Of a DNA stretch of 64,000 nt, positions 61,599 to 63,135 are shown piece after piece. Position 1 is the first letter of the stretch, and every line of letters starts with the position of its first letter. The stretch covers positions 2,306,121-2,370,120 of the forward strand of contig CAWETU010000001.1 in assembly GCA_963812135.1 (NCBI GenBank), read 5' to 3'. The notes below the pieces were generated by a model. The model had not been told where the DNA came from and did no database searches. It saw only the letters and a list, made by a program, of their open reading frames with translations. A program made the position numbers and the translations under genes. This stretch comes from Vulcanimicrobiota bacterium. Lineage in GTDB: Bacteria; Vulcanimicrobiota; Vulcanimicrobiia; Eremiobacterales; Eremiobacteraceae.

Positions 61599-61885
61599 CA
61601 TGTTCTTCCCACCATTCCTGGTGGCATAGACTATATCTTCATCCTGATTGATTTGATCAGGAGTCGGCGTGTGATGGCGGCCGTAGATTTATCGCATCGC
61701 TGCGACAGTGACCATCCATCTCAGAGCTCGCGCTCTTCAGTCGTTACGGGGTCAAGGCACGTTCTGTTCGTGCCCGACTTCCCTCGGTATTACCCCGTCA
61801 GCGTCGGTCGATGCTGACGTCGGGTTTCACCGATATAGCCGATGTACATCCTCCAATTGCTCGGAGGAGACGCAGTGTTTTCTCT
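61599..61885 (-). ncRNA. Group I intron at L2593 (IA3-like), 287 nt, no ORF
   Basis: Splits GAACGU|CGUGAGAC; P1 ACGUAG/CUGCGU with U-G; R CCGUAACGACU, S AAGAUAUAGUC; P7.1/P7.2; terminal G. Confidence 0.92.
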
Positions 61886-62005
61886 ACGTTCTGAACCCAG
61901 ATCGCGTACCGCTTTAATTGGCGAACAGCCAAACCCTTGGGACCTACTACAGCCCCAGGATGCGACGATCCGACATCGAGGTGCCAAACCTCCCCGTCGA
62001 TGTGG

Positions 62006-62297
62006 CAATCTACAATCACTTGTAGCTTAGACTATACCTTCATCTCTTTCGAGATGGTGACGTGTTATGGAAGTGATAGATTTGCGTCTTGCGACGCAGC
62101 GCTTCCATCTCTCGCGCGCTGGCGAGAAGTCGTTACAGGGACCGCGCAATCCATCGTCTCGGTCGAATAAATCCGACCGCTACATTAGGATCAATGATGC
62201 GCTGGTCTTCCCTCGGTATTGCCCTTGCCGTGCAAGGGTTCCACCGATATGAGTCACTGATCGCCCACTCGATCGCTCGAGTGGCGAGCCCAAATTG
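62006..62297 (-). ncRNA. Group I intron at L2473 (IA3-like), 292 nt, no ORF
   Basis: Splits CCCAAGAGU|CCACAUCGAC; P1 GAGUC/GGCUC with U-G; AUCGGUGGAA, AAUACCGAGG, CUGUAACGACU, GGUAUAGUC; terminal G. Confidence 0.9.
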
Positions 62298-62820
62298 ACT
62301 CTTGGGGGAGATAAGCCTGTTATCCCCGGGGTAGCTTTTATCCGTTAAGCGATGGCTCTTCCATTCAAAACCACCGGATCACTTAGCCCGACTTTCGTCC
62401 CTGCTCGACATGTACGTCTCGCAGTTAAGCCGACTTCTGCCTATGCACTCTTACGGTTGATTTCCGACCAACCTGAGTCGACCTTTGGGCGCCTCCGTTA
62501 CTCTTTGGGAGGCGACCGCCCCAGTCAAACTGCCCGCCTGACCATGTCCTCCAGCCGGATCACGGCTGCTAGTTAGATTCCCGAAACCGACAGAGTGGTA
62601 TCTCAAGGTCGGCTCCATCGCACCCGAAGATGCGACTTCAGCGTCTCCCACCTATCCTGCGCAGTCAATTTCAAAAATCAAGATCAGGGTACAGTAAAGC
62701 TCCACGGGGTCTTTCCGTCCTGCTGCGGGTAACGGGCATCTTCACCCGTATTGCAACTTCGCCGAGCCCCCCATTGAGACAGTGCCCAAGTCGTTACGCC
62801 ATTCGTGCAGGTCGGAACTT

Positions 62821-63135
62821 CATGCTTCTCCACGGTTTCCCGTGGCATAGACTATACGTTCACCTGATTGCAACGGGCTGAGTATCTCGTCGCCGACATC
62901 GTGTCGCTTGACGTGGATTTGATGGATCACATCACAAGAATCAGGGCCGGCGTGTTATGGGATCTTGCGATCCCATCCGAGGGCTCTCACACCCTCGAGT
63001 CGTTACGGGGATTCGAGTTATCGAATCTTACCCTCGGTATTACCCGCGACGCCGCTTGGTTAAGCGCCGGTAGGGCTTCACCGATTTGAGCCGGTTGATT
63101 GGGCGGTGTCGCCACCGCTCCGGGCAATGTTACTT
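62821..63135 (-). ncRNA. Group I intron at L1951 (IA3-like), 315 nt, no ORF
   Basis: Splits UGUCGGGU|AAGUUCCGAC; P1 CGGGUAA/UUGCCCG; AUCGGUGAA, AAUACCGAGG, CCGUAACGACU, CGUAUAGUC; terminal G. Confidence 0.92.

Follow-up and report, generated by a model that had tools for sequence, protein, structure and literature searches.

The 23S rRNA gene at the end of the window, as we call the whole stretch of 64,000 nucleotides from an uncultured Vulcanimicrobiota bacterium of soil that was analyzed, contains three small insertions, group I introns of the self-splicing type that have lost their mobility genes. We consider it likely that these are three separate introns of IA-like build (helices P1 to P9 plus P7.1 and P7.2), each derived from a mobile lineage specific to its own site, devoid of an endonuclease, not mobile by themselves, inherited together with the rRNA gene and presumably spliced. 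They are not a recent intragenomic family and, apart from the site L2473, they are unremarkable members of an already known class of elements.

The 3' part of the gene lies at 61297..64000 on the minus strand (Rfam LSU_rRNA_bacteria, 1468.6 bits; model positions 1202-2925, the gene being truncated at 1202 by the end of the window and of the contig), and the 5S rRNA is located 3' of it at 61062..61179 on the same strand (Rfam, 96.1 bits). The full-length gene of 3966 nt is found at C5:220-4185, the single 23S locus found in the genome, which is overlapped by the end of contig C1. The Rfam alignment of the window's gene contains large insertions that were placed by MAFFT alignment with the E. 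coli 23S rRNA (L008:608-3511), the basis of our site numbering, after position 2593 (287 nt), after position 2473 (292 nt) and, as measured in the C5 copy, at 1947-1951 (316 nt). The last boundary is ambiguous in the alignment because of a short repeat, and the exact limits of all introns were set by reading the sequence. From 5' to 3' on the minus strand, the gene thus contains the L1951 intron (62821..63135, 315 nt), the exon between L1951 and L2473 (62298..62820, E. coli 1952-2473), the L2473 intron in the loop of helix 89 (62006..62297, 292 nt), a 120-nt exon between L2473 and L2593 (61886..62005, E. coli 2474-2593) and the L2593 intron (61599..61885, 287 nt), with all three introns ORF-less and both exons delimited with Rfam and MAFFT. 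The limits of the L2473 intron also fit its relatives, in which the intron ends in G and the exon restarts with C/U-CACAU. The preliminary description of this DNA had named L1951 and L2593 and had placed splicing near H89, and its coordinates and lengths for the insertions proved exact.

In the group I core as delineated by Michel and Westhof, the U at the end of the 5' exon is paired to a G in P1, together with the internal guide sequence; by the structural definition of the class, the intron ends in omega G, and helices P3 to P9 make up the core, with P3 and P7 arranged as a pseudoknot. In the window copy, each intron directly follows an exon U (61886, 62298 and 63136) and has G as its last nucleotide (61599, 62006 and 62821), and in all three MFE folds of 8 exon and 20 intron nucleotides this U pairs with an intron G (z-scores of the three P1 folds, -3.05, -0.96 and -2.70). 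The motif pattern running from P4 to Q has three matches in the window, compared with 0 expected from 100 shuffles, and the R and S motifs were found in each of the introns. The IA type is defined by two additional helices, P7.1 and P7.2, which follow the 5' strand of P7 and precede the 3' strand of P3; all three site alignments contain two covarying hairpins at this place, so that each of the three introns has an IA-type build. The same feature has been described for L2593 introns (PMC1995217). Hence the exon U, the terminal G, the U-G pair in P1, the shared P, Q, R and S motifs and the extra hairpins past P7, all of which had been noticed in the preliminary description, hold for every intron.

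The base-paired core is preserved by compensatory change. For L2473, the alignment of 14 introns supports 68 pairs, with 97.0% of cells paired compared with 86.0% in shuffles, and 32 pairs changed on both sides; none of 500 shuffles reached any of these measures, and slid controls were just 34-45% paired. Changes on both sides occur in P2, P3, P5, P6, P7.1, P7.2, P8 and P9. P4 and P7 show no or almost no variation among the 14 introns; because P7 never varies, covariation is uninformative on this helix, and its pairs were assigned by us from invariant columns. RNAalifold recovered the same helices at the other two sites, with 65 pairs, 30 of them with compensatory changes, for L1951 (10 same-site introns) and 81 pairs, 38 with compensatory changes, for L2593 (8 introns). 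All these structure alignments were restricted to ORF-less introns of one site each; MAFFT sets that mixed sites or included ORF-bearing introns misaligned the variable middle parts and were not used. A dispersed 25-nt hairpin repeat lies in the extended P6 of the L2473 intron (62160..62185, minus strand; blastn), with 94 further copies in the genome and matches in same-genus genomes.

The lack of a covariance-model match, which the preliminary description had named as an outcome that would refute its claim, was observed in part. The Rfam Intron_gpI model aligned end to end with L2593 (35.2 bits, E 7.7e-7) and L2473 (22.7 bits, E 0.0043), whereas L1951 gave no match in a 361-nt search, even at E up to 10; none of the three reaches the RF00028 gathering score of 50 bits. 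The other evidence outweighs these sub-threshold scores. Elsewhere in the genome, a fourth intron scores 69.1 bits with Intron_gpI, and neither ARAGORN nor Rfam identified a host gene for it, whether the intron was kept or removed.

None of the introns contains the intact endonuclease gene by which a mobile group I intron is recognized. No ORF of 84 aa or longer overlaps the three-intron region, and the longest sense-strand ORFs within the introns are of 46 and 40 aa, in agreement with the earlier claim that homing endonuclease ORFs are missing from all three. Among the matches listed, intron lengths are bimodal (259-387 versus 609-834 nt), and 27 of the 30 ORFs in the long same-site relatives encode LAGLIDADG proteins, of family 1 at L1951 and L2593 and of family 2 at L2473 (again among the matches listed, PF00961 in 6/6 cases at L1951 and 17/20 at L2593, PF03161 in 4/4 at L2473). 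In these long relatives, the gene lies in the P8 region at L1951 and in P6 at both L2473 and L2593. In the P8 region of the window's L1951 intron, the two ends of a LAGLIDADG_1 gene are still present, with about 12 nt left of the start and about 45 nt of the 3' end; a C-terminal remnant of 27 aa, detected by tblastn and DNA alignment, overlaps the 3' ribozyme core (62829..62909, minus strand), and 5 of 6 L1951 endonucleases match it in tblastn with 56-70% identity (best E 1.6e-4). ORF remnants are also kept in ORF-less relatives at L2473. Neither the L2473 nor the L2593 intron of the window itself shows a recognizable endonuclease remnant, and we infer the loss in these two from their same-site relatives. 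The ORF-less introns of the window would be derivatives of lineages that carry a LAGLIDADG gene in other bacteria. Taken together, the LAGLIDADG ORFs of the long relatives, the two gene ends in L1951 and the remnants in relatives at L2473 support the suggestion, made in the preliminary description, that all three introns lost their endonucleases. The trans-acting LAGLIDADG genes that it had offered as another possibility did not emerge from a search of the 98.4% complete genome, which yielded no LAGLIDADG_1 or LAGLIDADG_2 gene; the sole domain above the cut-off, a LAGLIDADG_3, belongs to an intein of ribonucleotide reductase.

At least 115 stretches in species-level genomes of GTDB match the core pattern, in a scan from which the window's own genome may be absent, and the hosts, among the matches listed, include Acidimicrobiia, Gammaproteobacteria, Nitrospirota, Acidobacteriota, Dormibacterota and Eremiobacterota. 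Judged by the flanking exons, at least 46 of these introns occupy L2593, at least 21 L1951, at least 14 credibly L2473, and at least 34 other or unplaced sites; five of the 19 loci labelled L2473 (L049, L060, L086, L089 and L090) were excluded from this site, their exon words being distant or mismatched. Across many phyla, among the matches listed, the motif also appears in introns whose surroundings are tRNA-like or 16S. Relatives from the window's family differ in the occupancy of six 23S sites, and three introns per gene are common among them. We built an intron tree from three concatenated anchored segments (166 columns, unrooted, with the bootstrap not settled), omitting L052 and G008_1917, which have no anchor motifs, and additionally leaving the long aberrant branch L038 out of the AU tests. 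In this tree, the 19 L2473 rows are united without exception in a single clade (support 100/100), 18 of the 20 L1951 rows form another (99/93), and each intron of the window falls among introns that occupy its site in other bacteria.

This pattern bears on whether one ribozyme lineage spread through the gene, as the preliminary description had proposed. The common core motifs and general build of the three introns are what would be expected if a single ORF-less ribozyme had recently been copied to three sites by reverse splicing or by a trans-acting endonuclease. However, a tree that holds the three introns of the window together as a clade is 230.5 lnL worse than the free tree and is rejected (p-AU 2.7e-47), the three are 59.7-62.9% identical to one another in the core columns versus 70.2-82.4% to the compared same-site introns of other bacteria, and the wide occurrence of the motif in tRNA-like and 16S introns, as well as the lack of a LAGLIDADG_1 or LAGLIDADG_2 gene in the genome, weighs against such copying, which we regard as scarcely credible. 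What may survive of the proposal is a much older event, in which a ribozyme of the L2593 type, resident in this bacterial group, reached the loop of helix 89 through reverse splicing or after acquiring a LAGLIDADG_2 gene with a different target, and gave rise to the L2473 lineage; two of the window's three introns would then stem from one ribozyme lineage, long ago. The free tree, in which L2593 does not form a single clade, places the six L2593 introns from the window's family together with the 19 of L2473 (98/94) and separates them from the remaining 27 L2593 rows. Both lineages bear the endonuclease gene, where present, in P6, and L2473 was found, among the matches listed, only in MAGs named Eremiobacteraeota, Vulcanimicrobiota and Dormibacterota and in relatives of the window's genome. 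Against these indications, a single origin for each site is not rejected (monophyly of the 33 L2593 rows costs 4.1 lnL, p-AU 0.385), the L2473 stem is long (0.85) in this short, unrooted tree, the endonuclease families at the two sites are unlike each other (PF03161 vs PF00961), and the L2473 and L2593 introns of the window are just 62.9% identical over 143 core columns. We therefore treat this old switch as possible, though doubtful.

Under our preferred reading, that of three separate site-specific introns, each intron would fold within the pre-23S rRNA and bind an external guanosine at P7; cleavage would occur after the exon U that pairs with G in P1, and the terminal G of the intron would then be used for exon joining, restoring helix 71, the loop of helix 89 and the peptidyl-transferase ring. 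Soil metatranscriptome contigs from three studies contain exact exon joints that skip 287, 292 and 315 nt and show 0 differences over a 182-185 nt exon stretch (62520-62704). However, these joints are not assignable to the window's organism, because the same-genus genomes G001 and G006 lack the L2473 and L1951 introns and have exons that are 98-100% identical, and because the joined form of L1951 also occurs in the DNA run X1, which may be the source sample. In three RNA runs, this exon stretch is covered and there is no depth inside the three introns; these runs do not come from a known intron carrier, and by itself this absence of depth is no evidence.

The alternative that the insertions are retained, or excised with the exons left unjoined, so that the 23S rRNA is fragmented, or that the operon is a dead copy, draws on the same lack of organism specificity of the joints, on an unspliced group I intron in the 23S rRNA of Simkania, reported according to the title of a work among the references of PMC11270868, and on a variant of the L1951 intron. 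The end of C1 and the start of C5 are 99.1% alike, with all differences inside the L1951 intron, and the C5 copy of this intron ends in ...GGGU, without the terminal G; if real, it could not, under the usual rule, be spliced to give a normal exon junction. The L1951 intron had no cover in the DNA run X1. Nevertheless, the locus must work because it is the sole 23S locus found in the genome, compensatory changes preserve the ribozyme helices in three lineages, and the RNA contigs of three studies, with their exact joints, point to ligation; we accordingly judge failure to join the exons improbable. At its end, the window runs into an rRNA repeat that is collapsed or overlapping, as the near-identity of C1 and C5 shows, and rRNA operons of MAGs are often chimeric, such that introns of other community members might have been joined into this operon during assembly. 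This explanation appears more improbable still, given that the same-genus genome G005 matches the window in its three introns and in their order (97% identity over all 1751 nt), that the nearest L2473 and L2593 introns belong to relatives from the same family, and that DNA contigs of X1 cross both exon-intron junctions of L2593 and of L2473.

Several known systems resemble the one described here. The Cr.LSU intron of the Chlamydomonas chloroplast 23S rRNA gene (I-CreI), which occupies L2593, has an IA-type build and holds its endonuclease gene in P6, differs from the window's L2593 intron in being organellar, in its intact gene and in self-splicing proven by experiment. A bacterial parallel is the 23S rRNA gene of Synechococcus sp. 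C9, in which three group I introns are likewise present, at L1917, L1931 and L2593 (Haugen et al. 2007, PMC1995217). According to the text of that paper, the L2593 intron of C9 has a short P2 and a P7.1/P7.2 extension of about 65 nt, as in the window, and the genes associated with the C9 introns encode single-motif LAGLIDADG proteins. By this account, all three C9 introns have full endonuclease genes, in contrast to none of the three in the window; the sites other than the common L2593 differ (L1917 and L1931 versus L1951 and L2473), and the host is a cyanobacterium rather than a soil MAG. The L1951 site is shared with the intron of Coxiella burnetii, which Table 1 of PMC1995217 lists with 720 nt and a LAGLIDADG protein of 157 aa; compared by description, the window's intron of 315 nt differs by deletion of the gene. 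ORF-bearing L1951 relatives, among the matches listed, measure 694-711 nt, with ORFs of 147-180 aa. The 23S insertions of CPR bacteria (Patescibacteria; sites 23IS6-14) are also comparable in that, as far as described in the text of Tsurumaki et al. (2024, PMC11270868), there are many group I introns per gene around the peptidyl-transferase center, ORF-bearing and ORF-less forms share a site, and each site has one endonuclease family; positions 1952 and 2593 are on the CPR list. Position 2473/2474 is absent from the main text and one supplement file of that paper, in which LAGLIDADG_2, so far as this text goes, is named only at 16S rRNA sites, and such introns are described as far rarer in non-CPR bacteria than in CPR.

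Multi-intron bacterial 23S rRNA genes have thus been published already (PMC1995217, PMC11270868), and the L2473 site in the loop of helix 89, with its LAGLIDADG_2 lineage, was not found in the literature that we searched. We tentatively suggest, as a conjecture that we would not expect to hold in its entirety, that L2473 with LAGLIDADG_2 may be an undescribed rRNA intron lineage restricted to the soil phyla Eremiobacterota and Dormibacterota that arose from a local L2593 ribozyme retargeted within the peptidyl-transferase region, and that multi-intron 23S rRNA genes with turnover at six sites may be regularly found in several abundant soil phyla outside CPR rather than being rare. Introns in bacterial rRNA genes have long been viewed as rare outside CPR, yet a single core pattern retrieves at least 115 genomes. 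Helix 89 is an apparently undescribed target site, and its own LAGLIDADG_2 enzymes could be characterized. The coexistence at one site of introns with intact genes, introns with remnants and clean ORF-less forms provides a natural series for the cycle of gain, decay and loss of homing endonucleases, and rRNA-based surveys and annotation of these soil phyla will encounter interrupted genes.

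The window comprises the final 64 kb of contig C1 and contains the 3' part of a bacterial 23S rRNA gene on its minus strand (61297-64000). This gene begins at position 1202 of the Rfam model, its 5' part being absent, and a 5S rRNA gene (61062-61179) lies downstream. The full 23S rRNA gene (3966 nt) is found at the start of contig C5 of the same genome. Large insertions are visible in the Rfam alignment. Alignment of the full gene to E. coli 23S rRNA from an annotated record located insertions of 287 nt after E. coli position 2593 and of 292 nt after 2473, and a third, 316 nt long in the C5 copy, at 1947-1951, with only small expansions elsewhere (78 nt after 302 and 52 nt after 1415). 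The expansion near 1398-1415 (52 nt plus 12 nt nearby; window ~63690-63745, minus strand) and the one after 302 may be intervening-sequence-type extensions. By sequence inspection, the introns, all on the minus strand, span 61599-61885 (L2593), 62006-62297 (L2473) and 62821-63135 (L1951), each preceded by an exon U and closed by a terminal G. These limits are identical to those of the preliminary description, which had reported three group I introns lacking ORFs; that observation is confirmed as a whole, including the exon U, the terminal G and the group I anatomy.

The Rfam model Intron_gpI aligned end to end with L2593 (35.2 bits, E 7.7e-7) and L2473 (22.7 bits, E 0.0043), both below the 50-bit gathering score, and gave no match to L1951, even in a separate search of this intron with E values up to 10. 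The covariance-model check proposed earlier was thus borne out in the alignment of two introns but not in their scores or for the third, and because the threshold was not reached, the group I case depends on anatomy and comparison. For each of the three introns, short folds of the exon with the intron start paired the last exon U with a G of the intron; the pattern extending from P4 to the Q motif matched three times in the window versus none in 100 shuffles, and the R and S motifs were found in all three. From same-site introns without ORFs, RNAalifold recovered P2, P3, P4, P5, P6, P7.1, P7.2, P8 and P9, P7.1 and P7.2 being two hairpins 3' of the P7 5' strand. Compensatory changes were present in 32 of 70 pairs for L2473 (14 introns aligned), 38 of 81 for L2593 (8 introns) and 30 of 65 for L1951 (10 introns). 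The L2473 structure was curated by removing one spurious helix and introducing P7 as a pseudoknot, which left 68 pairs. Under this structure, 97.0% of cells were paired compared to 86.0% in shuffles, 32 pairs had changed on both sides, and none of 500 shuffles matched any measure; slid controls were 34-45% paired, a comparison in which the structure has an advantage because it was derived from the very sequences tested. P7 and most of P4 are invariant in the L2473 set, and covariation neither supports nor contradicts these helices.

The preliminary description had offered two origins for these introns, loss of their endonucleases or spread of one lineage, and the comparison with relatives supports the former. 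We scanned one-genome-per-species GTDB contigs for the core pattern and assigned the resulting stretches, at least 115, to sites by flanking exon words. Intron lengths among these loci were bimodal (259-387 versus 609-834 nt), and 27 of 30 ORFs of long introns matched LAGLIDADG families: LAGLIDADG_1 (PF00961) in 6/6 at L1951 and 17/20 at L2593, and LAGLIDADG_2 (PF03161) in 4/4 at L2473. In the long forms, the extra DNA of L1951 introns lies between R and S (the P8 region, up to the 3' splice site); in L2473 introns and most of those at L2593, it occupies P6, between Q and R. Compared to its ORF-bearing relatives, the L1951 intron of the window shows an internal deletion that leaves ~12 nt near the start codon and ~45 nt from the 3' end of the coding region, and five of six L1951 endonucleases match its last 81 nt (tblastn, best E 1.6e-4). 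The ORF-less L2473 introns of relatives retain recognisable remnants of the LAGLIDADG_2 gene from its 5' and 3' ends; the 73-nt P6 extension of the window's own L2473 intron is too diverged to reveal any. Within this extension, where relatives carry the endonuclease gene, lies a copy of a 25-nt hairpin repeat (62160-62185, minus strand). The repeat, with a 7-bp stem, a 4-nt loop and no conserved flanks, has 94 further copies on contigs C1 and C5 (72 versus 22 by orientation), and similar copies are present in genomes of the same genus. The suggested search for free-standing LAGLIDADG genes yielded only an intein: LAGLIDADG_1 and LAGLIDADG_2 had no match at E up to 1 in the genome (98.4% complete), and the sole LAGLIDADG domain over the cut-off, a LAGLIDADG_3 domain (C1:1423238-1423489), belongs to an intein that interrupts the gene for a class II (B12-dependent) ribonucleotide reductase (L140:1-2910, minus strand).

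The other proposed origin, read as recent spread of a single lineage within the genome, is rejected by the intron phylogeny. In a tree of 79 introns, calculated from 166 retained columns that covered the 5' portion up to and including Q, the region of R, and everything from S to the 3' terminus, all 19 L2473 rows formed one clade (100/100), as did 18 of 20 L1951 rows (99/93) and seven L2500 introns of relatives (100/98); the L2593 rows split into three or more groups. Nearest to each window intron was its counterpart in G005, a genome of the same genus, followed by same-site introns. Forcing the window introns into one clade cost 230.5 lnL (p-AU 2.7e-47), and their core columns were 59.7-62.9% identical to each other versus 70.2-82.4% to the compared same-site introns of other bacteria; together, these results rule out recent intragenomic spread. 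An old site switch between L2593-type and L2473 introns is hinted at by the free tree, in which the L2473 clade groups with the six L2593 introns found in the organism's own family (98/94*). However, holding all L2593 rows together costs only 4.1 lnL (p-AU 0.385), the L2473 clade sits on a long stem, and its bootstrap values had not settled; the switch is regarded as a possible reading of the tree and no finding. In blastn comparisons, the L2500 introns of relatives align at 68-77% identity with the 3' half of the L2593 intron in the window.

By site, the core-pattern loci comprised at least 46 at L2593, at least 21 at L1951, at least 19 labelled L2473 (14 of them credible) and at least 29 elsewhere, including tRNA-like and 16S contexts. 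Six loci (L017, L034, L040, L047, L073, L093) have a 5' flank resembling the start of an initiator-tRNA-like gene, and two (L033, L077) lie in 16S contexts. Given these contexts and the many phyla involved, the core pattern marks a wide intron class and is no sign of kinship among the window's three introns. Among the matches listed, L2473 introns were confined to relatives of this genome and to records with the names Eremiobacteraeota, Vulcanimicrobiota or Dormibacterota; nearest to the window's spliced 23S rRNA are Eremiobacteraeota records (80-88% identity). The region was matched in 24 of 40 relatives' genomes searched and retrieved from 16; none of the conclusions depends on G013 and G016, two unpublished genomes. 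In the same genus, G005 carries L1951, L2473 and L2593 (97% identity over 1751 nt), G001 carries L1931, L2500 and L2593, and G006 carries L1931 and L2500. In the same family, the sets are L1931, L2473 and L2593 (G011, G017), L1931, L1951 and L2473 (G009), L2473, L2500 and L2593 (G007), and L1917 and L2500 with further inserted DNA before 1932 (G008). Six sister-family genomes (G025, G029, G030, G033, G037, G040) have uninterrupted exons at all three sites of the window. Thus, 23S rRNA genes in the family of this organism usually carry three introns, with a patchy occupancy of the kind expected of elements gained by homing and subsequently lost. The other introns of relatives measure 271-709 nt (L1931), 283-332 nt (L2500) and 755 nt (L1917); they come from G001, G006-G009, G011, G015, G017, G024, G027, G028, G032 and G036 (loci L125-L129, L131, L133-L139).

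Contigs of a DNA run (X1), possibly the source sample, extend across the 5' and 3' exon-intron boundaries of L2593 and L2473 with a depth of ~5.4, similar to the 6.75 measured over a variable part of the exons. The exons are covered in three runs of soil metatranscriptomes, drawn from three studies, including one stretch of 182-185 nt with no differences, at zero depth in the intron interiors, and the contigs of these runs contain exon-exon joints that omit exactly 287, 292 and 315 nt. Because the exons of same-genus genomes without L1951 and L2473 are 98-100% identical, the joined form of L1951 was seen in the DNA run too, and the shorter side of the L2593 RNA joint is just 21 nt, the joints are not assignable to this organism; they are consistent with splicing but do not demonstrate it here.

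The end of C1 and the start of C5 overlap over 2.9 kb at 99.1% identity, and all 12 mismatches and all 9 gaps fall inside the L1951 intron (C5:1741-2042 versus window 62818-63135). The C5 variant reads CAUGGGU before the exon, with GGGU rather than G at the 3' splice site, and would either have no terminal G or add three nucleotides to helix 71. It may come from another operon or another strain, or reflect misassembly.

A fourth small group I intron lies elsewhere in the genome (L001:1501-1698; C1:2070182-2070379, plus strand) and exceeds the Rfam cut-off at 69.1 bits. ARAGORN found no tRNA or tmRNA as its host, with or without the intron, and there was no other Rfam match; the 3' flank contains a T-arm-like sequence.

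Three group I introns (L1917, L1931, L2593), all bearing LAGLIDADG genes, have been described in one cyanobacterial 23S rRNA gene (Haugen et al. 2007, PMC1995217), whereas the window's three are ORF-less; the same source describes L2593 introns with P7.1 and P7.2 and lists a 720-nt Coxiella L1951 intron. In CPR bacteria, up to 16 insertions per rRNA gene have been reported; ORF-bearing and ORF-less forms share sites, 1952 and 2593 among them, and such introns are stated to be far scarcer in non-CPR bacteria (Tsurumaki et al. 2024, PMC11270868). Positions 2473 and 2474 are absent from the main text and one supplement of that paper, whose partly legible figures S1 and S2 define sites 23IS9-11. 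A literature search for rRNA introns at L2472-L2475 returned, among the matches listed, only unrelated protein residues, and no title or abstract retrieved for Eremiobacterota and introns concerned rRNA introns. L2473 is probably an undescribed insertion site. Less ordinary here are the host group, the absence of ORFs from all three introns and the L2473 site; otherwise, these introns belong to an already known kind of element, the distribution of which in soil phyla is wider than reported.
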